Of a DNA stretch of 64,000 nt, positions 1 to 19,435 are shown piece by piece. The DNA lies in IMG/VR virus record IMGVR_UViG_3300020036_007076, positions 5,325 through 69,324 of that record. One strand, written 5' to 3'. A program made the translations under genes and the position numbers. The notes under the pieces are model-generated. The model did no database searches. It saw nothing but the letters and a program-made list of their open reading frames with translations, and was not told the origin of the DNA. Origin of the DNA: a virus (Duplodnaviria; Caudoviricetes). Within the stretch, counting starts at the first letter, position 1; every line of letters starts with the position of its first letter.

Positions 1-236
1 ATTGTGAAGAAATAGCTTCAAAATTAATTTACTAGGATTACAAAATCTTTTAACGTATATTTATTTTATGATATCAATTCAGTTTACTAATGTACCTAAT
101 GTAGAAGAAGAAATAAGGATTATGAGTGAAAAATATATATTTAAATCAATAGAAAGATATACTTGTTGGTATGATAAAACTTCTATTGTTAGAATATTTT
201 TTTATGAAAATGCCTTTTAACATATATATTTAAAAC

Positions 237-500
237 ATGAAATTAAGAATAATAGAAATTATCCAATATCCTGGAGCTAAAGGAAAAAACAACCAACACA
301 GTAATTATTTTATTATTGAACAAAAACATCTTTTTAGATGGAAACAAATAAAAGTAATTGATATTCATGAGTCTACTAAATCATATCATTCATATTTAGA
401 TGCGGAAAAAGATATTTATGAAAATTATATGAATAGATGGGGAGAATGTATAAAAAATGGAAATGTTTATACTTGGAAACCATATTCATTCTGGGGGTAA
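237..500 (+). CDS. hypothetical protein
   Basis: ORF in the co-directional early block. Confidence 0.6.
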   Translation: MKLRIIEIIQYPGAKGKNNQHSNYFIIEQKHLFRWKQIKVIDIHESTKSYHSYLDAEKDIYENYMNRWGECIKNGNVYTWKPYSFWG

Positions 501-720
501 AAAAATGATTAATAAAGAACAATTAAACTCAATAAATTTTATTTCAGATGATGGTACTTATTATTATGATAAGGGAACATTTGATTATCAATATAATATA
601 AAAAACCAAGAATTATGGTATTATAATGATGGTTATGGAGATGAAGAGTTTATGTGTAGAGTAACAGATATAGAAGAATTAAAAAATTTAATAAATTATT
701 CGGATTATGAATTTAATTGA
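487..720 (+). CDS. hypothetical protein
   Basis: ORF 457..720; more likely start is MINKEQ after an A-rich leader (start approximate). Confidence 0.5.
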   Translation, partial: HSGGKKMINKEQLNSINFISDDGTYYYDKGTFDYQYNIKNQELWYYNDGYGDEEFMCRVTDIEELKNLINYSDYEFN

Positions 721-1159
721 AATATTTAGTATTATTATAATACATTGGATTGCTGATTTTGTATTACAAACAGAAAAACAAGCAACAGGAAAAAGTAAAA
801 ATTGGAGCGATTTACTTTCTCATACATCAGTATATAACTCCGTTTGGGCGGTATTTATTCCTATATATTTTATAGTATTTGGTCATGTTGGAGTTTTTAT
901 GGCAATATTATTATCTATGTTATTTGTAGTAATAACATTTATCTTCCATACAACAACAGACTATTTTACAAGTCGTTTAAATTCTAAATTAATTCCTGAA
1001 AGAGAATATGCCCATAATTATGGTAAAGGTGTAGATAAATATTCATTTTTTAGATATAAAAACGAAAATTGGCATAATTTCTTCGTATCAGTTGGGTTTG
1101 ACCAAGTATTACACTACATCCAATTATTCACAACATATTATTTATTAAAAACTTTATGA
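707..1159 (+). CDS. DUF3307-like membrane protein
   Basis: HWIADFVLQT at N-terminus, DQVLH at C-terminus, hydrophobic segments. Confidence 0.75.
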   Translation: MNLIEIFSIIIIHWIADFVLQTEKQATGKSKNWSDLLSHTSVYNSVWAVFIPIYFIVFGHVGVFMAILLSMLFVVITFIFHTTTDYFTSRLNSKLIPEREYAHNYGKGVDKYSFFRYKNENWHNFFVSVGFDQVLHYIQLFTTYYLLKTL

Positions 1160-1332
1160 TAAAAATATTCAAAAGATTATTATTTATATTAATTTGTTGG
1201 TGGGTTTTTCCATTAAATATATTGATTGCTTTTTTATTAGCAATCCCATATTATATTATAACAGGAAAACTTTCGATGGATGCTAAACCATTTAAACAAA
1301 TAAATGACTGGTTATTAAATTTAACCGAATAA
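1156..1332 (+). CDS. small membrane protein (paralog of 5107..5301); not in ORF track
   Basis: MIKIFKRLLFILICWWVFPLNILIA...YYIITGKLSMDAKPFK matches MKNILKRLLFILLIWVPLLNILVA...YFIITGKFIFDAKLFK. Confidence 0.7.
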   Translation: MIKIFKRLLFILICWWVFPLNILIAFLLAIPYYIITGKLSMDAKPFKQINDWLLNLTE

Positions 1333-1449
1333 TATTTGAACTCGCCGTTCATTATTTAGGGGAAAAGGGGGATAGGTTTAGTGGATTTTACCTCCCCCTC
1401 CCTTTATACTTTACTAGGATTATAAAATCTTTTAATATATATTTATATT

Positions 1450-1890
1450 ATGAAAAAAACAATTGAAATCCCAAATTATGAATTTTCTCCATTCCTTATA
1501 TTAGAAGGGGGGAGAAGTTTACACGATGGGGAAAGATACCTTGTTAAAAGTTTAAATTATTGGAATGTTGATAATTGGGTTATTGATAATTTATATGAAG
1601 ATCCTTCAAGACTTGCTGCAATGCAATTCTTAAAACCTAAAACTATAATTTTAGGAACAACAGGTGTTTATATAGAAAAATTAAAAATATTAATAGATTT
1701 ATTTTTCAGTTTAAAACTTGATTATATTGAAAATGTTATATTAACAATATCTGCTGAGGATGTATTGTGGGATGAAATTAAGAAATTGAAAAAGATAAAT
1801 AAAAAAGTTAAATTTTTCACTTTAGAATCTTGTCCTTCAATGTTTGATGATGAAGGGGAAAAGTATGAAATAGCTAAATTAAAATTATAA
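1450..1890 (+). CDS. hypothetical protein
   Basis: ORF directly after promoter repeat at 1415. Confidence 0.7.
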   Translation: MKKTIEIPNYEFSPFLILEGGRSLHDGERYLVKSLNYWNVDNWVIDNLYEDPSRLAAMQFLKPKTIILGTTGVYIEKLKILIDLFFSLKLDYIENVILTISAEDVLWDEIKKLKKINKKVKFFTLESCPSMFDDEGEKYEIAKLKL

Positions 1891-2846
1891 TGGATAAAGT
1901 TAAGGAAGAAAAAACATATAAATTATATTTTTATGAATGGGGTAATTTAGTAAAATTTGGGAAGGGGAAAACTGGAGCAAATAAACATGAATTTAAAACA
2001 TTTGAGGAATGTGAAAAACGAATAGAATATTTACTTTCACTTGCACGTATCCAAAATCATACAGAAAAACCAAAACAACAACTTAAACGACCAAATTTAA
2101 AATATAAAGTTGGAGATGAAGTTGTTTATAAGGGGTATATTGGAATTATCGCAGGGATAGGAAGTATAGAGGCTACTCATGAATATAAATTCAAAGGTTA
2201 TTCTGGTTGGCATGATGGAGATAGTGAACATTATATGTTTGATGAGAAAGGAAACAACATTAAACACGTTTGGGGTAATGATTATTTGTACGTAGATGAA
2301 TTTGAGTTAAAGCCTTATATTAAACCTAATCAAACAACAAAACAACAACTTTCAAAATATAAAATTGGGGAGAATGTTAAAGTAAAAATATATGATAATT
2401 ATTATAATGGAACTATTGAAGGAATTCAATATGGTACTGATAATAGAATAACTGGTTATAGATTTTATGGTTTTAATAAAGGTGGGCATAGTGGTGCGTT
2501 TAATACTTATGATTATGACCATTATGGAGAACCAATTAAATTTATTTCTAAAGAAAATACAAGATATTATTTTATAGAAGCATCATCTGTTATATATTCT
2601 TATGATATTAAAACACAAAATCCTCCAACAAAAGTTTATGACCCTCACACATTTGAAGAAAAATTTGTTTCTAGTAGTATTGAATTATCACCAATCCCTG
2701 AGGAAGAATTGGGGATAGATTTAGATTTTGAATATCCAACAGTGTGGGAAGATGAAATGGAAACTAAATCAAAAACATTAAAACATCAATCTCCAAAAGT
2801 AATGCAAATTAGTAAAAAACCATCTAAACTTTCACTCAAAAACTAA
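1890..2846 (+). CDS. hypothetical protein with two internal SH3-like repeats
   Basis: KQQLKRPNLKYKVGDEV...YKFKGYSGWHDG and KQQLSKYKIGENV...YRFYGFNKGGHSG. Confidence 0.6.
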   Translation: MDKVKEEKTYKLYFYEWGNLVKFGKGKTGANKHEFKTFEECEKRIEYLLSLARIQNHTEKPKQQLKRPNLKYKVGDEVVYKGYIGIIAGIGSIEATHEYKFKGYSGWHDGDSEHYMFDEKGNNIKHVWGNDYLYVDEFELKPYIKPNQTTKQQLSKYKIGENVKVKIYDNYYNGTIEGIQYGTDNRITGYRFYGFNKGGHSGAFNTYDYDHYGEPIKFISKENTRYYFIEASSVIYSYDIKTQNPPTKVYDPHTFEEKFVSSSIELSPIPEEELGIDLDFEYPTVWEDEMETKSKTLKHQSPKVMQISKKPSKLSLKN

Positions 2847-3256
2847 TGAAAACATTACTATGGCTTGATGATATAAGGTCACCATTCGAAAATGATGGGA
2901 GTTGGTTAGTGTTCTCTCCTATTGAACAACCTTTTGAGGTTATATGGGTTAAAACTTATGATGAATTTACTAAATGGATAACAGATAATGGATTACCAAC
3001 TGCAATCTGTTTTGACCATGATTTAGGAAAAGACATAGCATTGGCTAATATCAAATCTGGAATGAGTAAACGTGAAGCAAAAAGAATTAGACGTAACTCA
3101 ACAAAAACAGGAAAAGATTGTGCTAATTGGTTAGTAGAATATTGTATGGATAATGAAAAGGATTTACCTTTATATAACATTCAATCAGCTAACCCAGTAG
3201 GTAAAGAAAATATAGATGGATTATTAAAAAACTTTTTAAAATTTAAAAACAAATGA
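2846..3256 (+). CDS. cyclic-phosphate-processing receiver-like domain protein
   Basis: LWLDDIR, ICFDHDLG, TGKDCANWL and IQSANPVG motifs. Confidence 0.7.
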   Translation: MKTLLWLDDIRSPFENDGSWLVFSPIEQPFEVIWVKTYDEFTKWITDNGLPTAICFDHDLGKDIALANIKSGMSKREAKRIRRNSTKTGKDCANWLVEYCMDNEKDLPLYNIQSANPVGKENIDGLLKNFLKFKNK

Positions 3257-3498
3257 ATATAACATTAATAATTTATATAATTGGAATGATAGTTTCATAT
3301 TATATGATGAGAAAAATAGATAAATCATTTACTTATCTAGATTATACTTGGTTTGATGTATTAAGTTCGATGTTCTCTTCTCTTCTGAGTTGGATTACAG
3401 TATTAGTTATATCACCTTTATATATAAAAAGATGTGTTAAAAATGAATTTATTAAAAAATTATTTTCCAAATTGAAAACACCACCAACATGGCTTTAA
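3253..3498 (+). CDS. small membrane protein
   Basis: two hydrophobic stretches. Confidence 0.55.
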   Translation: MNITLIIYIIGMIVSYYMMRKIDKSFTYLDYTWFDVLSSMFSSLLSWITVLVISPLYIKRCVKNEFIKKLFSKLKTPPTWL

Positions 3499-4148
3499 AA
3501 AAACACACTCAACTACCTATCCCTTCAGGTTCAAGTTGGGATAAAAAAACATATAATCCATATTTTTTATTTAATGCTTGGTTATATAATAAATTTCCAC
3601 ATACTTGGTTTTATAAAAATTATGATAAATTTATCCAAACCCCAATAAGTAGTTTTATTGGAGGTGTAAAATCATTAATTAGATGGCTTCCAATTATATG
3701 GAAGGATCGAAATTGGGATAGTCACTATACATTAGAAATATTAAAACATAAATTAATATTACAAAGAGAATATCTTGTTACAAACAATAGATTTACTACT
3801 GTAGATGTTGTTAATAGAGATATTACATTATGTCTTAATTTAATTGAAAGACTTCAAGATGATTTTTATGAAGTAGAATATCAAGATTATTATGAAGAGG
3901 ATATGTGGTTTGAACCAATTGAAGGAGGAATGTATAGTGTAAAATCAAAAGTAATAAGAGAAAATTTACAAGATTATTTTGATAAATATCCTTTAGTTGT
4001 AAGTAAAATTTATAGAAAACACCCACAACCATATTCAACTCCTCCTAATATATCAATTGCTCTTCAAGTTGGAACTGAAAATCATGAAAGATGTAAAAGA
4101 TTATTGTTTAAAGTTTTACAAGATAAAATCGAACATTGGTGGGATTAA
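3489..4148 (+). CDS. hypothetical phage protein
   Basis: 219 aa ORF ending in WWD. Confidence 0.7.
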   Translation: MALKKHTQLPIPSGSSWDKKTYNPYFLFNAWLYNKFPHTWFYKNYDKFIQTPISSFIGGVKSLIRWLPIIWKDRNWDSHYTLEILKHKLILQREYLVTNNRFTTVDVVNRDITLCLNLIERLQDDFYEVEYQDYYEEDMWFEPIEGGMYSVKSKVIRENLQDYFDKYPLVVSKIYRKHPQPYSTPPNISIALQVGTENHERCKRLLFKVLQDKIEHWWD

Positions 4149-4166
4149 TTAAATAAAATAATAGTT

Positions 4167-4484
4167 ATGTTTAAAATAGGACAAAAAGTAGTTTATATTA
4201 CTGGTATACACATGGAAAAAGGTACTATATGTGTAGTATCTGATGTAGAACAAAACCCTTGTGGATGTACTGACATTGCAATAAATGGAGAAAAAATCAT
4301 AAGAAACCCTGTATTTGGAGGTGGAATTAGATGTTCTGATTGTGGTAGTGTATATGAAAAAAATTATGTTGTTAGAGGAAATAATTGGAATGCCCATTCA
4401 TTCCGTCCATTAGATGAATCATTCGCAGAAGGGATTATTGAAATGATTGAAAAATCAATTGAAGAAGAATTGGTAAATTATTAG
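4167..4484 (+). CDS. hypothetical protein with CxC/CxxC motifs
   Basis: MFKIGQKVV start; stop TAG is the first TAG of a promoter repeat. Confidence 0.7.
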   Translation: MFKIGQKVVYITGIHMEKGTICVVSDVEQNPCGCTDIAINGEKIIRNPVFGGGIRCSDCGSVYEKNYVVRGNNWNAHSFRPLDESFAEGIIEMIEKSIEEELVNY

Positions 4485-4532
4485 GATTACAAGATTTTTT
4501 AACATATATTCAAATAAATTAAAATAAAGGTT

Positions 4533-4718
4533 ATGGAAGATCAATTGATTAAGCGTATAAAAGGTGGGATGTTTGCTATTAAAACCAAACAAAAAACACC
4601 ACAAGATGCAGGTTTAGGAGTTTTATTTAATAAATTAAAAATTATTAATAAACCAATGCACGATGAATTAATGAATGATTACAAAGCAACTCTTCAACTT
4701 TTAAAAGATGATAAATAA
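4533..4718 (+). CDS. hypothetical protein
   Basis: follows promoter repeat and AAAGGTTATG leader. Confidence 0.7.
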   Translation: MEDQLIKRIKGGMFAIKTKQKTPQDAGLGVLFNKLKIINKPMHDELMNDYKATLQLLKDDK

Positions 4719-4884
4719 AGAATGGATTGATGATTTATTCTTTGAATCAAAACAAAGATTAAATTGGTATATTCAAGGTATTGGGATACATGGGTTAACC
4801 CCAGATTTATTCTCAAAACTAACAACAAAAAGGTTATGTGAAATCTATAATATTGATAAAAAATATTTTAAAAAATAAACAAAC

Positions 4885-5106
4885 ATGGACGGAATATTTA
4901 TATTAGCAATTTTAATTTTATGGTTATTTTGTGGATTAATGGGATTTATCCTAATAACTACAGAATGTAACATGAAAAATTTAAAAATAGTAAAATATAC
5001 ACCTACTAAATTAATTTTTTATATGCTTATAATGGGATATTTAGGATTAGTAATAACATTGTTTGTACCTGTTGAAAAATATTTAAAAACAGTTAAGAAA
5101 AAGTAG
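4885..5106 (+). CDS. small membrane protein
   Basis: two hydrophobic helices. Confidence 0.55.
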   Translation: MDGIFILAILILWLFCGLMGFILITTECNMKNLKIVKYTPTKLIFYMLIMGYLGLVITLFVPVEKYLKTVKKK

Positions 5107-5301
5107 ATGAAAAATATATTAAAAAGATTATTATTTATACTGTTAATTTGGGTACCACTTCTAAATATATTAGTGGCTGGAATATTAGTGGCTCCTTATT
5201 TTATAATAACAGGGAAATTCATATTTGATGCTAAATTATTTAAATTAATAATGAATCTTCATTACAATTTAATTGAACAAAAAAATAAAAATGGAAAATA
5301 A
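5107..5301 (+). CDS. small membrane protein (paralog of 1156..1332)
   Basis: similarity visible by eye. Confidence 0.65.
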   Translation: MKNILKRLLFILLIWVPLLNILVAGILVAPYFIITGKFIFDAKLFKLIMNLHYNLIEQKNKNGK

Positions 5302-5719
5302 AAATACACCAATTTATCCAATAGCAGATTTAAATAATCATCCTTCATTACTATTTGGTTTAACAAAACGAGAATATTTTGTTGGTTTAGCTATGCAAGG
5401 ATTATTATCAAATCAGTCAATCACAGAACATCATGGAGAATCTGCAATAAAATGGATTACTGAGCATTCAATTAAACAAGCAGATGAAATATTAAAACAA
5501 TTAGGATTAAATATAATAGAAGAATCAAATGAATTCTTTAAAAATAAAGATGAAGTTTGGGTAAAAGATTTAGAGGATGAACTTCCAGTAAGTGCTATTT
5601 TCATTAAATATAATGATTCTAACCAAAAATTTAAATATAGGGTTATAATAGGAGGAAATGATTATGAATCTGATGTTGCTTTTTGTAAATTAAAAGGAAC
5701 TGACCAAAAATGGTATTAA
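5291..5719 (+). CDS. hypothetical phage protein (TKREYF..AMQGLL family)
   Basis: GLTKREYFVGLAMQGLL motif; start reassigned to MENKN. Confidence 0.65.
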   Translation: MENKNTPIYPIADLNNHPSLLFGLTKREYFVGLAMQGLLSNQSITEHHGESAIKWITEHSIKQADEILKQLGLNIIEESNEFFKNKDEVWVKDLEDELPVSAIFIKYNDSNQKFKYRVIIGGNDYESDVAFCKLKGTDQKWY

Positions 5720-5747
5720 TTTAATTCACCCTTATATAAAATATAAT

Positions 5748-7783: not shown

Positions 7784-8044
7784 ATGAAAAGAGAAGAATA
7801 TGTTCAAATGCGTAATTCCAAAACCATATCAATGGAATTAGCTTGGGAATTTTACCAATTAACTCCACACAAATCTCCAAAAGTACCAATTCAATTATTT
7901 GAACAAGTATTTCCAATGTTCTTACAAGGAATATTAATGTTCAATTCAACTATAGATAAATTATATCTCCACTACGACATGAAATTCAATGTTCATAAAT
8001 TAGATGGAACATTTAAAGGTCAAACAATTTCTAAATATTATTAA
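7784..8044 (+). CDS. hypothetical protein
   Basis: follows promoter repeat. Confidence 0.65.
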   Translation: MKREEYVQMRNSKTISMELAWEFYQLTPHKSPKVPIQLFEQVFPMFLQGILMFNSTIDKLYLHYDMKFNVHKLDGTFKGQTISKYY

Positions 8045-8247
8045 AAAATGGAAACAACAAATCTTATTTATCACTTATTAGTGGTATTAATGTCAATAGT
8101 TATGTTTAACACAAAAATAACTGCACCAAATGATTTTCTTGAAATTATTCTAAAATCACTTGCAAAATTAGGTTCATTATTTTGTATGTTATATGCTGGA
8201 GTTTAGTTGTTTAAATATTTTGGAATTATATAAAATAATATGGAATA

Positions 8248-8296
8248 TAACGGCATCAAGCTATGCGCTCGTTTTAATAGCGCATAGGTTGTGTTA
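8248..8296 (+). repeat. attC-like site S1
   Basis: TAAC ggcat CAAgCTATGCGCT cgttttaat AGCGCATAGgTTG t GTTA. Confidence 0.8.
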
Positions 8297-8435
8297 GTTG
8301 GTGCGGTTGCCAGTGGGCTGGTTCTGTTTGTTTTTGTTCTTTTTTGAGAAGGGAGGGGAATTTTAACAAATTATTTGAAACTTTTATTTGTATATATCGT
8401 ATATATGATGTATATTTACTGAAAAATTATAAACC

Positions 8436-8678
8436 ATGAAAACAAAAGAATATAATACAGTTGGTACAGTTGCTTTAAAAGCAGGCGGAACAATGGAAAT
8501 AGGTTCATATTTCAAAGAATTTGAATGCGAAGAAACTGGAATGAAATTAATTGAAGAAACACCAGTTGGATTAATGAGAATTACAGGTATAAAAAGAACT
8601 GTAATATTACCAACAGGAGAAAGAGAAAATTTTATGACTGAAACCACATTTGAAATATTTAAAAAATTAATGAAATGA
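8436..8678 (+). CDS. cassette 1 gene A, hypothetical
   Basis: inside cassette GTTAGTTG(8293)...CAACTAAC(8838). Confidence 0.65.
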   Translation: MKTKEYNTVGTVALKAGGTMEIGSYFKEFECEETGMKLIEETPVGLMRITGIKRTVILPTGERENFMTETTFEIFKKLMK

Positions 8679-8830
8679 GTAAGCAACGTAAAAATATAGA
8701 CTTCACTGATTTTTGTATTGAACAAATTTCGATTGAAGCAGTAAAGAAAAAAACCGATTTCAAGAATTATATTCAGGAATTATCTGAACGTGAAGCTGTG
8801 CGGTTGGCAAAAAAGAACAAAAACAAATAG
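8675..8830 (+). CDS. cassette 1 gene B, small hypothetical; not in ORF track
   Basis: MSKQRKNIDFTDFCIEQ...KNKNK*; ends immediately before CAACTAAC. Confidence 0.55.
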   Translation: MSKQRKNIDFTDFCIEQISIEAVKKKTDFKNYIQELSEREAVRLAKKNKNK

Positions 8831-8834
8831 CAAC

Positions 8835-8920
8835 TAACGGACGGCAATATATGTAGTTGCCTTGCACGAACTTAAAAATTAGTATAAACCTTAATAGGCA
8901 ATTACATATATTGCTTGTTA
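8835..8920 (+). repeat. attC-like site S2
   Basis: TAAC ggacg GCAATATATGTAGTTGCC ... GGCAATTACATATATTGC tt GTTA. Confidence 0.85.
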
Positions 8921-8934
8921 GCAAACGTTTTTTT

Positions 8935-9267
8935 ATGGATTATAAATTAACAACAAATATACAATATTCACACCACGATAAAGATGGTGCTGACAGAAAT
9001 TATATATCATATTTTTTGAATGGCATATTAATATTGAAACAAAAAATACCATTCGATACAAATTGGGAACGTGGCTTTGATAGACGAACATCAATATATG
9101 ATGAATATATTTTGAATGGTAAAATGTATCAAAAACGTAGAAAGTGGCTTGGATGTTCTAATGAGGATAATGATAAAACGGAAATACGAGAGGTGTCATT
9201 CCCATTATCAAAAAATAGATTAGCACAATTTGATATACCAAAGGACTTTCGGATTGTGGTGTCTTAA
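8935..9267 (+). CDS. cassette 2 gene, hypothetical
   Basis: start reassigned to MDYKL; flanked by GTTAGCAAAC and GTTTGCTAAC. Confidence 0.7.
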   Translation: MDYKLTTNIQYSHHDKDGADRNYISYFLNGILILKQKIPFDTNWERGFDRRTSIYDEYILNGKMYQKRRKWLGCSNEDNDKTEIREVSFPLSKNRLAQFDIPKDFRIVVS

Positions 9268-9276
9268 TATGTTTGC

Positions 9277-9402
9277 TAACGTAAAAGTATTGCCGAAGGT
9301 GGGGGCATTAAACCACCAAAGCTAAATTGAAACACAAATGATTGTTAAACCGATGAAGCACCATAGTAGCACTTCTGCCCCACTTTTGGCAATACAGTGT
9401 TA
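9277..9402 (+). repeat. attC-like site S3
   Basis: GTATTGCCGAAGGTGGGG ... CCCCACTTTTGGCAATAC between TAAC and GTTA. Confidence 0.85.
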
Positions 9403-9431
9403 GGTGCAGTGCTTCTCACAAATTTAAAATA

Positions 9432-9680
9432 ATGAAATACATAATTTATGAAATGATTACACCCGAACACTTACAAAAAGTAGTTCAAGAAGGTTATGGT
9501 TACACAAAAACACTTTACAGAAATGTCTTAGAAAAATTAGATGTTTCAGGTGTTGAAGCAGAACACCAAACATTAGAAATGGCTATGGCTGAAATTTTGT
9601 CAAAAAAAGATAAGTTGAAACACTTAGAATTAACGATACTTCCTGTAATAGCAATTTCTTGGGACGGTGAAGTTTCTTAG
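9432..9680 (+). CDS. cassette 3 gene, hypothetical
   Basis: flanked by GTTAGGTGCAGTGCT and AGCATTGCACCTAAC. Confidence 0.7.
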   Translation: MKYIIYEMITPEHLQKVVQEGYGYTKTLYRNVLEKLDVSGVEAEHQTLEMAMAEILSKKDKLKHLELTILPVIAISWDGEVS

Positions 9681-9689
9681 CATTGCACC

Positions 9690-9816
9690 TAACGGCTTCG
9701 GGCTTTGTGTCCGTTGGCGACTTAACCCACCAATGTTAAATTAAAATACAAAACTTGATAATATGAAAAATGTTGAATTGAAAAACGAAACCCCCACTTT
9801 TGGCAATGTGCTGTTA
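9690..9816 (+). repeat. attC-like site S4 (hybrid arms)
   Basis: left arm CGGGCTTTGTGTCCGTTGGCG; non-matching right arm CCCCACTTTTGGCAAT. Confidence 0.8.
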
Positions 9817-10152
9817 TGCCCCGTTTTGGGTCAAACGTATAATTACTTTGATGATGGGAAGATTAACCCAAGTCGAAGAATGGAAGTGGTTATAACAGAA
9901 ATTATTCCATTTGCCGAAATAGATTTAGAAACTTTAAATAATTGGAAAGAAGAAGTTGAAGAATGTGATTGGCTTTATGCTAAAGAAACGGATTTTTTTG
10001 TAAAGGCTGATTTGAAAATTTCCGATAATAAGACTGAAAAGATAATTTTTGTAAGAACCATTAATAATAACGATGGCTGGTTTAGTCTTGGATGGTGGGG
10101 AGGTAGATTAGACATAGATGGTTCGTTAAACGCTCTGTTAAATGGGGCATAA
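9763..10152 (+). CDS. cassette 4 gene, hypothetical; start codon lies in the S4 loop
   Basis: MKNVELKNETPTFGNVLL encoded by the hairpin; stop is the TAA of TAAC. Confidence 0.7.
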   Translation: MKNVELKNETPTFGNVLLCPVLGQTYNYFDDGKINPSRRMEVVITEIIPFAEIDLETLNNWKEEVEECDWLYAKETDFFVKADLKISDNKTEKIIFVRTINNNDGWFSLGWWGGRLDIDGSLNALLNGA

Positions 10153-10277
10153 CGTTTCTCGGCTTGTTGTCAGGCGGGGATTTAGAAACACAAAACTTTC
10201 AATTATGATACGAAGATTATTAGAATTACTACACTTGATTAAACCACAGAAGCCCCGCTTGCAACAAACCGATGTTA
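10150..10277 (+). repeat. attC-like site S5
   Basis: TCGGCTTGTTGTCAGGCGGGG ... CCCCGCTTGCAACAAACCGA. Confidence 0.85.
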
Positions 10278-10414
10278 GCGGAAGTGCTTCTCGTAAGCCT
10301 AACCCTTATCAGTTGGTTTGGTATAAGCAAGGTTGGTCGGAAAACAGAGTTAGAAAAAACAACTCAAAATATTGGGAATTTGAAATAGAACACAATGGTC
10401 TGCGGTTGCCATAG
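10205..10414 (+). CDS. cassette 5 gene, hypothetical; start in the S5 loop
   Basis: MIRRLLE...PRLQQTDVSGS; cassette ends GTTAGCGGAAGTGCT and AGCATTTCCGCTAAC. Confidence 0.6.
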   Translation: MIRRLLELLHLIKPQKPRLQQTDVSGSASRKPNPYQLVWYKQGWSENRVRKNNSKYWEFEIEHNGLRLP

Positions 10415-10423
10415 CATTTCCGC

Positions 10424-10549
10424 TAACGGTTTGCAGATTGCCGAAGGTGGGGCATTAAACCACTAAACTTTAATTAAAATACAAAACTTGATAATATGAA
10501 AAATGTTGAATTGAAAAACGAAACCGCCAATGGCACAAAACCCGTGTTA
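10424..10549 (+). repeat. attC-like site S6 (hybrid arms, reciprocal to S4)
   Basis: left arm ATTGCCGAAGGTGGGG; right arm CGCCAATGGCACAAAACCCG. Confidence 0.8.
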
Positions 10550-10765
10550 TCGGCTGGTTGGATTTCTGTAAAAGAGCAATTACCTGAATGTTGGAGTCAA
10601 CACCGAAATGATTATGGAAGTGGTTACGTTCTTGGTTATACTAAATATGGTGAATGGGAAATAACTCAACTTTGGAATAATAAAGATTGGGAAGGTGATG
10701 ATGACAATGAAGGTGATTATATTACTCATTGGATGCCGTTGACCGTTCCACCAACTTGCCGATAA
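10496..10765 (+). CDS. cassette 6 gene, DUF551-like
   Basis: WISVKEQLP...ITHWMPL; start in the S6 loop; stop is the TAA of TAAC. Confidence 0.75.
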   Translation: MKNVELKNETANGTKPVLSAGWISVKEQLPECWSQHRNDYGSGYVLGYTKYGEWEITQLWNNKDWEGDDDNEGDYITHWMPLTVPPTCR

Positions 10766-10891
10766 CGGTACTCAGATATATTTAGGTTTTCTTTTTAATA
10801 TATAAAACAAAAAAATAAACGAAGATGAAACATTTAAAAACACCACAAGAGTTGAACGAAGCATCAGAAAACTTGAATATATCTGATGTTA
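10763..10891 (+). repeat. attC-like site S7
   Basis: TCAGATATATTTAGGTTTTCT ... AGAAAACTTGAATATATCTGA. Confidence 0.85.
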
Positions 10892-11049
10892 GCCACAGTA
10901 TGACTGGTGAAGGTATGAACAGCCTTGAATTTTTTGATATGATTAAAAAGGAATGGTGTGTAAGTGAAGAACAGTATAAGCCATTCTGGAATGATGTGTT
11001 AACATTTGCTCGAAAGTATCACAAAGAACGTAAGGAATATTGTGGCTAA
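10825..11049 (+). CDS. cassette 7 gene, hypothetical; start in the S7 loop
   Basis: cassette ends GTTAGCCACAGTAT and ATATTGTGGCTAAC. Confidence 0.65.
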   Translation: MKHLKTPQELNEASENLNISDVSHSMTGEGMNSLEFFDMIKKEWCVSEEQYKPFWNDVLTFARKYHKERKEYCG

Positions 11050-11066
11050 CGGCCAATACTGTGTTA
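11047..11066 (+). repeat. attC-like site S8 (internally deleted)
   Basis: TAAC ggccaatactgt GTTA; no hairpin remains. Confidence 0.7.
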
Positions 11067-11111
11067 TAGGTAGTTGTTTTAAAAATTAGCGTTGGCATTA
11101 AAAATATAAAT

Positions 11112-11390
11112 ATGAAATCAGCAGAAGAAATTTTGAAGCCGTATGTTGAAACACCATTCAGGCATACGCAAATAGTTGAAAAAGACAATGCGTTGTTAGC
11201 AATGCAAAAGTTTGCAGACCAATTTAGAGGCGTTGAATGGATTGCGGTTAAAGACCAAAAACCAGCAGATTATGACAGAGTGTTATATTTTGATAGCAGA
11301 GATGGAAATATGAACGTAGGATATTTTGTTTGGTCGCAAACGCCTGTAGATTATGTAACGCATTGGATGAAATTACCTGCTAAACCTTAA
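11112..11390 (+). CDS. cassette 8 gene, DUF551-like C-terminal domain
   Basis: WIAVKDQKP...VTHWMKLP; cassette ends GTTATAGGTAGTTGTTT and AAACAATTACCTATAAC. Confidence 0.75.
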   Translation: MKSAEEILKPYVETPFRHTQIVEKDNALLAMQKFADQFRGVEWIAVKDQKPADYDRVLYFDSRDGNMNVGYFVWSQTPVDYVTHWMKLPAKP

Positions 11391-11423
11391 CTGTGCGGTG
11401 GGAATTTTTGAAACAATTACCTA

Positions 11424-11508
11424 TAACGGTTGCAAATATACAACGTTTTTTGTTAAAAATTCTAAATAAATTTGGTAGTCTGATAAAAATATTTTATATT
11501 TACTGTTA
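11424..11508 (+). repeat. attC-like site S9
   Basis: GCAAATATACAACGTTTTT ... AAAAATATTTTATATTTAC; weaker stem. Confidence 0.7.
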
Positions 11509-11524
11509 GCAAATCGTAAAAATT

Positions 11525-11671
11525 ATGAAAACTTACAAAGTATTATTTTGGTGGGGAAAAGTTAGAAGACAAGAATATGTAGATGCAGAAAAATTAGATG
11601 ATGCACTAAAGTTATTCAGACAAGGAAAATATGGTGATTATGATGTTATTAGCATAGTAGAAAGCGAATAA
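11525..11671 (+). CDS. cassette 9 gene, 48 aa hypothetical; not in ORF track
   Basis: MKTYKVLFWWGKVRRQEY...IVESE*; flanked by GTTAGCAAATCGTAAAAATTAT and ATAATTTTTATGTTTGCTAAC. Confidence 0.65.
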   Translation: MKTYKVLFWWGKVRRQEYVDAEKLDDALKLFRQGKYGDYDVISIVESE

Positions 11672-11684
11672 TTTTTATGTTTGC

Positions 11685-11811
11685 TAACGTAACGCAAGTA
11701 TAAGAAGTTGGGGACTTGAAAAAGTTGGCGTGGGTTCATCGAATCGGGTCAGTTATAGAAGCCGAAGTTCTCAATAGACTCATAACCCCCAATTTCTCAT
11801 ACTTGATGTTA
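11685..11811 (+). repeat. attC-like site S10
   Basis: CAAGTATAAGAAGTTGGGG ... CCCCAATTTCTCATACTTG. Confidence 0.85.
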
Positions 11812-11836
11812 TGTAATCGTTTTAATGTTACATAAC
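11808..11836 (+). mobile_element. gene-less cassette 10
   Basis: GTTATGTAAT cgttttaat GTTACATAAC. Confidence 0.7.
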
Positions 11837-11959
11837 GTTTTGCAGCTAAACGAGGTGGCTGATTAATACCTCGAAACTTAATTTAAATGTATAAAATTAT
11901 GAGTAAAGATAAAACTTCATTAGAAAACGAAAGCCAGCCATCTTGTTTAGGTGCTGTTA
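11833..11959 (+). repeat. attC-like site S11
   Basis: GCAGCTAAACGAGGTGGCTG ... CAGCCATCTTGTTTAGGTGC. Confidence 0.85.
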
Positions 11960-12102
11960 TAAACAGTATTTCTGATGATGGGTTAATTAAACTGTATAGG
12001 TTAGCTTATAATGATGGATTTGATAATGTTGGGGATAAGAAAGATATTATAAAACATAGACAAAAACAGATAGACAAAATTAAGAAGAAATATTGTTTAT
12101 AA
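11887..12102 (+). CDS. cassette 11 gene, hypothetical; start in the S11 loop (11887 or 11899)
   Basis: cassette ends GTTATAAACAGTATTTCT and AGAAATATTGTTTATAA. Confidence 0.65.
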   Translation: MYKIMSKDKTSLENESQPSCLGAVINSISDDGLIKLYRLAYNDGFDNVGDKKDIIKHRQKQIDKIKKKYCL

Positions 12103-12227
12103 AACACAAATGAGTTCTCAGCTTGACCCTACTCTTATGAATGTCAGCAGTAAACTTTTAGGAGTAATTACTCCATATAGTAACAGGTGCCTGATGGATC
12201 CCTGATAAGAAAGAGGGTGCTAAAAAT
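12103..12227 (+). ncRNA. putative structured RNA motif, copy A
   Basis: AACACAAATGAGTTCTCAGC..TGACCCTACTCTTAT..ATAAGAAAGAGGGTGCTAAAAAT, shared with 14984..15123. Confidence 0.55.
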
Positions 12228-12297
12228 TAAGTTAATTTATTAGGATTACAAAATATTAAAGTGTATATTTATTCTATAAATTTAAAATCACAAACAC

Positions 12298-13125
12298 ATG
12301 TCTGTAATTAAATTAGCACTTGAAAAACAAAGAGAAGAACTAATTGAGAAATTAGATATTGCTCAATCATCACTTAATGAACAAATTAATAAAGAAACAC
12401 ATTTATTATTTGATTCGATTGATGATGTGTTTAAAGATTCTAGAATTACTGTCTCTGACTGTAAAATTGAATTTTTTATGGATAGTTCCTCAGGAAAATG
12501 GAGTGGTCACTTCAGTATTGAAAGAAGAAATACCTATAGTTTTAAAGAAAACGCTATAAAATATCATCCCGCTATACTCAATTATAGTTCATGCTCTTCT
12601 CCTGATGAGTTTGAGTTAAAAGGAATGATTGGGAAAGGTAAAATTGCATTCCACCAACTAAATAAAACCAAAACTTGGGATGAAATGGTTGGATTAATGG
12701 ATAAATATGAACAATTGAAAGAGGAATTAATAAAACCTATTAGTGATGTAATTTACGAAATAAGAAATGAATTAGATCTTATCAAACGAAATGAAGAAAC
12801 TGAAAGAATTGAAGCATTAATCAAACAAAAAACAGTCAAATTAGCCAAAAACTATACTTTACAATTAAGTAATAGTAGATATGATAATATCAATTCAAAT
12901 GAATTCTTTTGGGAAGAAAATCCATCAGGTAAAACATACTCCATTTCATACACACATAAAACAAGAGTAAACCCATACTATGATGAAAATGGGGAAAAAT
13001 TGGAAGGTGAATATAAAGATGAAGTAATTAAACTAAATAAACGATTTAAAAAATCTGAAATCTATTATTTGGTTGGTGTTAAAATTAGAGAAGAAAATAA
13101 CCAATTAAACGAAAAAGAATTATAA
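12298..13125 (+). CDS. hypothetical protein
   Basis: 275 aa ORF after promoter repeat. Confidence 0.75.
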   Translation: MSVIKLALEKQREELIEKLDIAQSSLNEQINKETHLLFDSIDDVFKDSRITVSDCKIEFFMDSSSGKWSGHFSIERRNTYSFKENAIKYHPAILNYSSCSSPDEFELKGMIGKGKIAFHQLNKTKTWDEMVGLMDKYEQLKEELIKPISDVIYEIRNELDLIKRNEETERIEALIKQKTVKLAKNYTLQLSNSRYDNINSNEFFWEENPSGKTYSISYTHKTRVNPYYDENGEKLEGEYKDEVIKLNKRFKKSEIYYLVGVKIREENNQLNEKEL

Positions 13126-14983: not shown

Positions 14984-15123
14984 AACACAAATGAGTTCTC
15001 AGCAAAGTAGTTAATAGGACGGAATGGTCTGATGCTGGAATGAGCAATTAACTACATGACCCTACTCTTATATGTAATGTGAAGCATGAGTTTCTGAAGT
15101 ATAAGAAAGAGGGTGCTAAAAAT
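14984..15123 (+). ncRNA. putative structured RNA motif, copy B
   Basis: same three conserved blocks as copy A, with an extra inserted hairpin GTAGTTAAT/ATTAACTAC. Confidence 0.55.
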
Positions 15124-18788: not shown

Positions 18789-19435
18789 TAACGGTTTGCA
18801 TAAGACCAGTAAAGGAATGCGAGAGATGAACTATCGAGTTACACAACAGATTGAGCGGGCTACGATGCTGAAATTACCGATACAACCTTTATTGGTTTTA
18901 TGCGGTGTTACCGCCCGTTTTTATTAATCCTTAAATCAATTTATTATGAGTAAAAAACTCGAAATACTAAAACAATCATTGGCAAAAAAAGAGGAACAAC
19001 TTAACGCTAAATTTGATACTCATTTTGCAACTGTAAAACAAGCCAATGGGCAACCGCTCAACGACAAAAGAAATGGACAAGCCACTTTAAACAAGTGGGA
19101 ACGCCAAAACGAAGGTATTAGGACAATTCAAAAAAGCATTGAAGCGACTAAACAGGCTATTGAAATTGAAGAAGGTAAGATAAAAGGAGTTGAACACACT
19201 AATACTTTTATACCTGCCGAAATTCAAAAGCTGGTTGAAACTGGCGAACTAATTCAATGGAGAAAACACCCGCATACTTTTTTTGTTGCTGGAGTTGATA
19301 AGGCTCGAATTGTTTGGGATGAAAAACGCAAAGTAGTTGCTCATAAATTTGTTAGTGAAATTACTATTCAAGAGCAACGGACAAAATTTGTCAGAATATA
19401 CAACCCATTGAACGCTCTTTTAAATGGGCGGTAAC
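18789..19435 (+). mobile_element. orphan attC-like hairpin plus cassette, joined to the TAAC of an early promoter
   Basis: TAAC ggttt GCATAAGACCAGTAAAGG...CCTTTATTGGTTTTATGC ggt GTTACCGCCCGTTT (18907)...gene...AAATGGGCGGTAAC (19435). Confidence 0.85.
18946..19434 (+). CDS. orphan cassette gene, hypothetical coiled-coil protein
   Basis: stop codon is the TAA of the terminal TAAC. Confidence 0.75.
   Translation: MSKKLEILKQSLAKKEEQLNAKFDTHFATVKQANGQPLNDKRNGQATLNKWERQNEGIRTIQKSIEATKQAIEIEEGKIKGVEHTNTFIPAEIQKLVETGELIQWRKHPHTFFVAGVDKARIVWDEKRKVVAHKFVSEITIQEQRTKFVRIYNPLNALLNGR

Follow-up and report, generated by a model that had tools for sequence, protein, structure and literature searches.

Between positions 8248 and 12102 of a 64,000-nucleotide stretch of phage DNA (hereafter the window), imperfect hairpins bounded by TAAC and GTTA alternate with small open reading frames (ORFs), and the question raised by this arrangement is which gene each hairpin belongs to. 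In integrons a cassette consists of a gene followed by its attC recombination site, whereas a first-pass annotation of the window had proposed the reverse: the hairpin would precede its gene and supply the start codon, and the TAA of the next core would be the stop. The window comprises bases 5325–69324 of the 69,324-bp IMG/VR virus contig IMGVR_UViG_3300020036_007076 (estimated completeness 43%). Its GC content is ~26%, rising to 31–35% in the 8–12 kb region, all of its long ORFs lie on the + strand, and the host is probably a member of the Flavobacteriia. The 8248–12102 region is an integron-like array in which 11 TAAC..GTTA sites with small + strand ORFs between them make up 11 cassettes. 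As argued below from sequence comparison, we think it probable that the explanation as a whole is an integron-like system of inverted layout. Two sets of sites were used for the analysis: 65 sites collected by loop motif from the contig and 11 related loci, and the sites of loci anchored on homologues of the contig's recombinase gene, 80 of which were fetched from IMG/VR (38–80% identity). Individual loci are cited by L numbers.

The design of the sites was found to be constant over the set of 65. Each has a 5-bp TAACG/YGTTA box, a bulge of 3–4 nt on the left (AAC) arm, and a stem of ~20 bp enclosing a loop that is either short (33–36 nt) or long (66–75 nt); a 49-nt mini form also exists. The bulge was seen only on the left arm in this set, and in the recombinase-anchored set it was on the left arm 133 times and on the right arm 7 times. 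Imperfect hairpins with RYYYAAC/GTTRRRY boxes and with R boxes that are complementary within the cassette are attC-type features, and both are present. The 7 nt that follow GTTA form on average 4.96 of 7 possible Watson–Crick pairs with the 7 nt that precede the next TAAC, as opposed to 2.11 pairs with the box across the same hairpin and 2.21 at random. Complementary cassette ends are the signature of a circular intermediate, but taken alone they fit gene-first as well as hairpin-first units.

The unit that moves can be read from the points at which copies diverge. In an all-against-all BLAST comparison of the loci, the T of TAAC is typically the first base that two copies share; from there the homology passes GTTA and, in several pairs, extends far into the gene that follows, with different genes on the upstream side (for example, L002 versus contig 14159, L004 versus L012, and L005 3648 versus contig 2468). 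Copies of the site at 8835 were found in 11 other loci, again with homology running from TAAC onward, and in L007 a pair of paralogous genes shows 96% identity as far as TAACGGTT, beyond which the hairpins belong to different classes. The ends of the arrays have the same polarity. A primary array lies upstream of the window (contig 1–3416, sites at contig 117–2555, at least 8 cassettes; L001 covers contig 2269–5730) and abuts the recombinase gene. Its last cassette ends ..GCATATAAC without a hairpin, 49 nt before the recombinase ATG; the 217–230-aa ORF in this cassette has relatives among the cassette genes of L005 and L008. On its right side, the window array ends TGTTTATAA|AACACAAATGAG; the sequence past the bar is a motif of the backbone, found again at 14984, and the cassette itself starts with GTTATAAACA. 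Because the right end keeps TAA but not C, the C does not belong to the 3' end of the cassette, which places the crossover between A and C. An orphan cassette at 18789–19434 has the same layout, with a hairpin, GTTACCGCCC, the gene and GGGCGGTAAC, and no trailing hairpin. A crossover 3' of TAACG, with the bulge inherited by the upstream cassette, was also considered: the L007 paralogues hinted at it, but other copies of hairpins and gene ends disagreed, and TAA|C was kept, as the right end of the array indicates.

The first-pass annotation had named crossover mapping in orthologous arrays as one check of a hairpin-first unit, and cultured phages supplied the comparison. The closest cultured relatives of the recombinase are encoded by Polaribacter and Cellulophaga phages, and the ten Freya isolates among them vary in length upstream of the integrase gene. 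Freya_9 and Freya_10 share 3,793 identical nt that end ..TTTTTACCAAC. Next in Freya_10 comes a 307-bp insert consisting of a 188-nt hairpin, GTTAGCAAC, an ORF and GTTGCTAAC, flanked by AAC, and past the insertion point both phages read ACCCCTATAAC.. to the integrase ATG 49 nt further on. The two phages thus differ by a single cassette exactly at the position that we describe below as attI-like. The coding sequence annotated by the depositors, Freya10_10, starts in the loop of this hairpin and runs through its right arm. A TAAC/GTTA scan of Freya_10 returned almost nothing because the cores of the Freya phages are often CAAC/GTTG. In all of these comparisons (copies, array ends, the attI-like site and Freya) the crossover falls at the TAAC 5' of the hairpin. 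The classical unit, a gene followed by attC with crossover at G|TT of R', does not describe them, since the hairpin travels with the downstream gene. As read from these alignments, the mobile unit runs C-hairpin-GTTA-gene-TAA, with its boundaries and its insertion point both evident, and on this matter the first-pass annotation was borne out.

The contig encodes a single tyrosine recombinase, a 265-aa protein specified by contig 3466–4263, outside the window. It falls below the cut-offs of both TIGR02249 (151 vs 265 bits) and XerA_Arch, and its best match in the PDB is archaeal XerA (4A8E, E 3e-32). When it is aligned to VchIntIA (2A3V), residues 7–177 and 214–254 match residues 5–181 and 265–305, leaving 36 aa opposite 83 aa. 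The protein therefore lacks the IntI-specific insert (~47 aa fewer at that position), which places it outside integrons sensu stricto. Classically, this insert contacts the extrahelical bases of the site. The putative catalytic residues R, K, H, R, H and Y, assigned by motif context, are invariant between two homologues that are 44% identical. Across 77 related loci, 248 hairpins precede the recombinase homologue and 7 follow it, all of them on the strand of the gene. A conserved sequence, TAAC|TATTATATATA (TAAC followed by TA..TATA), joins the variable cassette ends in 47 of 64 distinct loci and lies mostly 36–52 nt before the recombinase ATG (mode 52; 49 nt in the studied contig). Judged by its conservation and position, TAAC|TATTATATATA appears to be an attI-like site, and in this respect the system would have what an integron has. 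One locus, L008:3976–4140, keeps an array and the attI-like site next to a recombinase gene cut to ~22 codons (MKILKIYQEKLRY..), which is a pseudogene remnant. In one scan of bacterial genomes, the sole match was a contig from a Flavobacteriales metagenome-assembled genome that is itself phage-like.

The two strands of the sites are not equivalent. Folding energies calculated for both strands bore out the claim that the + strand folds better: the gene-sense strand was the more stable in 62 of the 65 sites, by 2.27 kcal/mol on average, and in 231 of the 248 recombinase-anchored sites. Mismatches of the G.T type likewise favor it, as had been noted, with 2.38 G.T pairs per site on the + strand and 0.86 on the − strand. 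For the recombined bottom strand of classical attC sites, the corresponding values are an advantage of 2.12 kcal/mol and 1.24 versus 0.39 G.T pairs (Nivina et al. 2016, PMC5027507), and the aacA4 attC of a class 1 integron, used as a control, gave −26.1 kcal/mol for the bottom strand and −21.0 kcal/mol for the top strand. The stability and G.T enrichment that mark the recombined strand of an integron site are thus found on the better-folding strand here, presumably the recombined one. The bias extends to the cassette ends, where the pairs other than Watson–Crick number 181 G.T and 2 A.C, or 42 and 2 when the nearly fixed seventh position is left out. Because these ends are adjacent only in a circle, the excess speaks for pairing of the strand as DNA and not just as mRNA. 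Base composition (G>C and A>T skew on the + strand) was considered as the sole cause of the G.T excess and rejected: by a rough estimate with assumed frequencies it predicts an excess of ~1.2-fold, as compared with the 2.8-fold excess observed in the stems and 181:2 at the cassette ends. An AA|C cut at the 5' foot of the hairpin on the sense strand would have the geometry of the classical bottom-strand cut. Relative to their ORFs, then, the sites look like ordinary attC sites, while stability bias, linkage, and the position of attI and recombinase are all reversed. The system behaves as though it used the strand that IntI rejects, which would fit an enzyme without the insert. The proposal that the sense strand plays the part of the bottom strand accordingly holds for stability and G.T bias, but not for the bulge, which lies on the AAC arm, a mark of the top strand.

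The remaining part of the question is whether the hairpin provides the start of its gene. Translation reproduced the five reported N-termini that begin inside a hairpin loop and continue through the right arm and GTTA, namely MKNVELKNETPTFGNVLLCPV (ORF 9763), ..KPQKPRLQQTDVSGS (10205), MKNVELKNETANGTKPVLSAG (10496), ..ASENLNISDVSHS (10825) and ..ENESQPSCLGAVINS (11887). Three of the hairpins that bear these ATGs fold, but the 9690 and 10424 sites, whose arms are swapped, show no fold in cis (see below). In the first 12 loci, 24–25 of 34 long-loop sites have a loop ATG in frame with a long downstream ORF, and ~20 of them have no other ATG within 60 nt of GTTA. The recombinase-anchored loci contain 151 distinct long-loop sites, and in 107 of these an ORF of at least 40 codons passes through GTTA. 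An in-frame ATG lies inside the hairpin in 86 of the 107 (80%), as compared with 73 of 214 control frames (34%), and in 45 of the 86 there is no second ATG within 60 nt. Short-loop sites show no excess of loop ATGs; their genes have an ATG 15–16 nt past GTTA. Within the window, the sites at 8835, 11427, 9277 and 18789 have no start in the hairpin and an ATG 15–36 nt past GTTA.

Protein comparisons bear on the same point. ORF 9763 has 302 homologues, in which the conserved body begins P-V/I-L-G-Q/K-T-Y-N-Y-F-D-D-G-K (PVLGQTYNYFDDGK). Many of them start 3–6 residues ahead of the body (e.g. MITTIPILGK) in hairpin-free phage contexts (L100, L101), and others bear variants of the 20-residue extension. 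One homologue, P0111 (57% identical to ORF 9763), has a recognizably homologous extension encoded by DNA without a TAAC/GTTA hairpin, indicating translation of the right-arm segment in some members at least. In ORF 10496, the DUF551 domain starts at residue 21, right after the part encoded by the hairpin. Overall, it is likely from these patterns that the loop ATGs are in actual use. The claim of loop starts is therefore favored by the frame statistics and by the conserved extension of ORF 9763 without being proven by them, and ORF 10825 has an alternative ATG at 10900, 9 nt past GTTA. The companion claim, that the core TAA serves as the stop, holds for the ORFs ending at 10152, 10765, 11049 and 19434 but not for the one ending at 12102, where TAA is followed by A at the end of the array. 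In the class 1 control (L099:5145–5216), the aacA4 stop is the TAA of the GCCTAAC inverse core, so the phage system is not alone in placing a stop inside the core.

The features of the array and of the orphan cassette are listed below. Folding was judged against dinucleotide shuffles, as single-stranded DNA and on both strands, and is given as z-scores; the eight intact sites ranged from −1.7 to −5.2 on the + strand and from −1.0 to −3.7 on the − strand.

8248..8296, + strand: mini hairpin site, 49 nt, left end of the array (z −5.2 on +, −3.5 on −)
8436–8678 and 8675–8830, + strand: ORFs of cassette 1, which is begun by the mini site 8248..8296
8835..8920, + strand: short-loop site, 86 nt; the ATG of gene 8935–9267 is 15 nt past GTTA
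9277..9402, + strand: long-loop site, 126 nt; gene 9432–9680 begins 30 nt past GTTA
9690..9816, + strand: long-loop site with arms swapped with site 10424; loop contains ATG 9763
9763..10152, + strand: cassette ORF, 129 aa, with loop start; its stop is the TAA of TAAC
10150..10277, + strand: long-loop site, 128 nt; loop contains ATG 10205 (z −2.65)
10205..10414, + strand: cassette ORF, 69 aa from the loop ATG, which is the sole in-frame ATG
10424..10549, + strand: long-loop site with arms swapped with site 9690; loop contains ATG 10496
10496..10765, + strand: cassette ORF, 89 aa; DUF551 at residues 21–87; stop inside TAAC
10763..10891, + strand: long-loop site, 129 nt; loop contains ATG 10825 (z −2.4)
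10825..11049, + strand: cassette ORF, 74 aa; stop inside TAAC; second in-frame ATG at 10900
11047..11065, + strand: collapsed site (TAAC, 12 nt, GTTA) preceding the DUF551 cassette gene 11112–11390
11427..11510, + strand: weakly pairing short-loop site; gene 11525–11671 begins 15 nt past GTTA
11685..11811, + strand: long-loop site (z −2.8), followed by an ORF-less 29-nt cassette, 11808–11836
11833..11959, + strand: long-loop site, 127 nt; loop ATGs 11887 and 11899 (z −3.1 on +, −1.0 on −)
11887..12102, + strand: last cassette ORF, 71 aa; TAA 12100–12102 is the right end of the array, followed by backbone AACACAAATGAG
18789..18910, + strand: hairpin of the orphan cassette, at the TAAC of an early-promoter-like motif (z −3.3 on +, −1.4 on −)
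18946..19434, + strand: gene of the orphan cassette, 162 aa; ATG 36 nt past GTTA; no hairpin after the gene

The left junction of the array reads ..GGAATATAA|C. Two sites have a history of their own: the one at 9690 and the one at 10424 lack a fold in cis (z +0.6 and +1.2), yet the left arm of each pairs in trans with the right arm of the other, at −21.6 (left arm of 9690) and −20.4 kcal/mol as compared with −6.0 and −13.3 kcal/mol in cis, and they have in common an identical 56-nt loop that contains the ATG. The arm swap is the footprint of a homologous crossover between the two loops and implies the insertion of a two-cassette circle through recombination in the loop rather than at TAA|C. 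Around the collapsed site at 11047–11065, the ends flanking gene 11112–11390, GTTATAGGTAG and TTACCTATAAC, are still complementary, and this cassette looks as if it had been fixed through loss of its hairpin. The 29-nt ORF-less unit (GTTAT.TAATCGTTTTAATGTT..ATAAC) recurs in unrelated arrays (window 11808–11836, L008:3947–3975, L023) and adjoins the attI-like site in two of them, L008 and L023; this empty cassette may be a conserved stuffer or a part of the platform. Annotation with Pfam and PHROGs yielded DUF551 as the sole named family in the cargo, in two cassettes (10496–10765 and 11112–11390), and no named function for the rest.

In the orphan cassette, the gene end GGGCGGTAAC is complementary to the GTTACCGCCC that follows the hairpin. 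An early-promoter-like motif, TAGGATTACA..TTAAC-(G)TATATTTA, is repeated at window 7742, 12230, 18314, 18771 and 19622 and resembles the attI-like TAAC|TATTATATATA; one copy has the orphan cassette inserted precisely at its TAAC. Promoters may be secondary insertion sites, or the attI-like site may be derived from a promoter. The backbone element starting AACACAAATGAGTTCTCAGC is present twice, at window 12103–12227, where it borders the array on the right, and at 14984–15123. Elsewhere in the window, 25 tRNA genes lie between 26728 and 31460 and represent nearly every amino acid. Such tRNA blocks are typical of large lytic phages whose GC content is far from that of their host.

Together, these observations suggest the following mechanism. 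The 8248–12102 region would be a secondary array of an integron-like gene-capture system found in a large family of Bacteroidota (Flavobacteriia-type) phages. The mobile unit would be a circle that in linear form reads C, hairpin, GTTA plus ~7 nt, gene, complementary ~7 nt, TAA; in the circle its ends would pair and lengthen the hairpin into an R box of ~11 bp. For the Freya10_10 cassette, the predicted circle junction is ..GTTGCTAA|C-GTTCTACAG... The 265-aa recombinase, a member of the Xer/IntI clade with an intact RKHRH-Y set and no IntI insert, would exchange one strand, with a cut on the better-folding gene-sense strand that separates A from C in the TAAC where the hairpin has its 5' foot. 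On the cut strand, the C, the G and the 3–4 nt bulge would form a central region of 5–6 nt, with two bases there on the other arm, and this inequality would permit the first strand exchange and forbid the second. The single-stranded substrate, the cut strand, the acting enzyme and the use of loop ATGs are parts of the scheme that we infer. The primary target would be TAAC|TATTATATATA, ~36–52 nt upstream of the recombinase gene, so that new cassettes would stack directly upstream of that gene and all read towards it. Promoter-like TAAC sites elsewhere would act as secondary targets and account for both the 8248–12102 array and the orphan at 18789–19434. The position of each site at the 5' end of a gene allows it to bring expression signals along. 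In long-loop sites, the A/T-rich loop would give the start codon and the right arm plus GTTA would encode ~15–20 N-terminal residues, yielding peptides such as MKNVELKNETPTFGNVL, while in the short-loop class the ATG would lie 15–16 nt behind GTTA.

Several points weigh against this scheme or narrow it. Many of the counted sites are kin of one another and do not represent independent events. TAAC is common to every junction; the right end of the window array is the one place where the crossover can be narrowed to a single base, and this placement depends on a reconstructed pre-insertion sequence, ..GGAATATAA|AACACAAATGAG... When IMG/VR was searched with two backbone proteins, taken from the flanks of the array and of the orphan cassette, it returned no relatives, and hence no empty site for comparison. 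The studied array is 9.3 kb from the recombinase gene and the 4-kb downstream flanks of related loci are almost free of sites, so that a secondary-site origin for this array is something we only infer. In attC, the extrahelical bases belong to the AAC arm if the top strand is folded, whereas in the bottom strand they are found opposite the AAC (PMC5027507), and the aacA4 control conformed to the published pattern. The phage bulge, by lying on the AAC arm of the better-folding strand rather than opposite it, bears the classical mark of the strand that is not recombined, and the cut strand is thus assigned against one classical criterion. As the sense strand is also the better-folding one here, selection on mRNA hairpins could account for part of the G.T bias. 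Finally, TTG or GTG codons near GTTA may be the starts of some ORFs, such as GTG 10544 or the TTG within PVLGQ of ORF 9763.

Three other explanations were weighed against the inverted integron-like system. In the classical geometry, a hairpin would serve as attC for the gene that precedes it and be cut at G|TT on the − strand, the cassettes would come from a host integron, and both the loop ATGs and the open frames across the right arm would be incidental. The extra bases on the arm beside the upstream gene, which match the classical top strand, speak for it, as do the core-TAA stops that classical cassettes also have and the finding that attC clusters of virulent phages are usable by IntI1 (PMC9892861). 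Every junction observation, however, is the opposite of what it predicts, and the Freya_9/Freya_10 insertion contradicts it: arrays begin with a hairpin and end without one beside the attI-like site. Moreover, in 62 of 65 sites it is the antisense strand that folds less well, loop ATGs are in frame far more often than in control frames (80% vs 34%), and the contig encodes no insert-bearing IntI. On the strength of the junctions, we reject this geometry as highly improbable.

An RNA-level explanation, in which the hairpins are mainly regulatory modules (5' untranslated region (UTR), translation control or terminator) of the kind found in phage promoter-stem-loop (PeSL) cassettes and are shuffled by homologous recombination, draws on several real features. 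The G.T pairs of the sense strand would be G.U pairs in mRNA, start codons lie in loops, the sites at 9690 and 10424 did recombine homologously within their identical 56-nt loop, and PeSL modules yield mini-circles and modular shuffling (PMC2839356). On the other hand, breakpoints are sharp at TAAC rather than scattered through repeats, the complementary cassette ends pair only in a circle with their 181:2 ratio of G.T to A.C, and a fixed insertion point beside a conserved recombinase gene recurs at dozens of loci. Inspection of the sequence revealed no T-run after the stems, and Rfam gave no match in window 8000–12400. As the main function of the hairpins, an RNA role is improbable, and it could coexist with a recombinase mechanism. 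We attach equally little probability to a version in which the hairpin-first sites are genuine but are moved by a host enzyme (XerC/D or an integron integrase), with the phage recombinase serving, for example, in lysogeny. In its favor, the homologous gene of the flavobacterial isolates was interpreted by their authors as an integrase for lysogeny (PMC8776804), 9.3 kb separate the window array from the recombinase gene, and in L008 an array persists beside a recombinase pseudogene. The 248 to 7 distribution of sites upstream and downstream of the recombinase gene, always on one strand, the conserved TAAC|TATTATATATA junction 36–52 nt from its ATG, and catalytic residues that are invariant between two homologues 44% identical all argue against it.

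The inverted integron-like reading has several implications. We lean towards regarding these phages as carrying a separate and widespread capture lineage of Bacteroidota phages, which combines a minimal Xer-like recombinase, the strand rejected by IntI, and a site that doubles as a 5' expression module. If so, the 5' UTR, the start codon and the first ~20 codons come with the site, and captured genes are translation-ready and co-oriented with one-way transcription. Hairpin cassette capture would then need neither the IntI-specific domain nor the classical placement of extrahelical bases, which bears on the origin of integrons from Xer-like recombinases. Phage attC clusters would need to be re-read, as tools that orient sites by their extrahelical bases assign each site to the wrong gene here. 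A start codon within a recombination site also means that the pairing rules of DNA constrain and at the same time diversify protein N-termini; the literature searched contained no description of such an overlap of site and coding sequence for integrons. The Freya phages of Polaribacter are in culture together with their host and are set apart from one another by single cassettes, so the mechanism is directly testable at the bench.

How the system relates to known ones can be summarized from three sides. Like classical integrons (class 1 and the chromosomal integrons of Vibrio), it has folded imperfect palindromes, AAC/GTT cores, cassette-specific complementary R boxes that imply circles, and a fixed insertion site beside the gene of an Xer/IntI-clade recombinase, next to which new units are added. 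In both, one strand folds better and has G.T pairs, and the crossover is consistent with AA|C. Viewed from the recombinase gene, even the order is the same: recombinase, attI, [AA|C .. hairpin]. Unlike the integron enzymes, the phage recombinase is ~47 aa short at the IntI-specific insert, and unlike attC, the phage sites have their unpaired bases on the AAC arm of the better-folding strand. The ORFs are on the strand in the bottom role, the site precedes its gene, and the genes read towards attI. The system is also phage-borne, no arrangement of the Pc type is possible, and loops can contain a start codon.

Xer recombination offers a second comparison. In the XerCD/CTX phage system, an Xer recombinase acts on a hairpin of one strand, with a single-strand exchange and an unpaired central region. 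There, a whole phage genome is integrated into the host dif site by host enzymes, and there are no cassettes or arrays. Xer/dif elements, including integrative mobile elements exploiting Xer (IMEX), use 28-bp dif-like sites with XerC and XerD arms, a 6-bp spacer and host XerCD; the phage recombinase is Xer-like, but the sites described here are hairpins of 49–195 nt with AAC/GTT cores. PeSL cassettes of T4-type phages (PMC2839356), which combine a strong early promoter with a terminator stem-loop, resemble the phage cassettes in that small accessory genes each stand behind a regulatory stem-loop and undergo shuffling with mini-circles. They differ in that exchange is by homology, with no AAC/GTT cores, complementary ends, dedicated recombinase or fixed site, whereas here we find sharp TAAC breakpoints, complementary ends and no T-run in place of homology exchange and a terminator stem-loop.

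The closest published observations concern attC sites in phages. Clusters of attC sites lacking an integron integrase (CALINs) have been described in virulent phages, including a Polaribacter phage, and were usable by IntI1 in an assay (Qi et al. 2023, PMC9892861). The window array formally fits the CALIN definition (at least 2 attC sites and no integron integrase nearby), with 11 sites and no IntI; the fit is formal only because a linked non-IntI recombinase is encoded 9.3 kb upstream. In the CALIN study the sites were read in the classical orientation and as integrase-less, with no report of a linked Xer-like recombinase, an attI-like site, hairpin-first units or loop starts (PMC9892861). 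The paper on the flavobacterial isolates took the Freya integrase as a sign of possible lysogeny and did not mention cassettes (PMC8776804). A full-text literature search found no account of a hairpin-first, Xer-run cassette system in phages, and the design appears to be undescribed. In classical integrons IntI selects its strand according to the side on which the extrahelical bases lie, and a cassette recombined through the top strand would end up inverted (Nivina et al. 2016, PMC5027507). The phage sites resemble a natural version of the top-strand attC mutants of that study, in that the strand with the bulge on its AAC arm would be the one used. With IntI1, top-strand use is engineered or of low frequency (PMC5027507); here it would be the normal mode of another enzyme.

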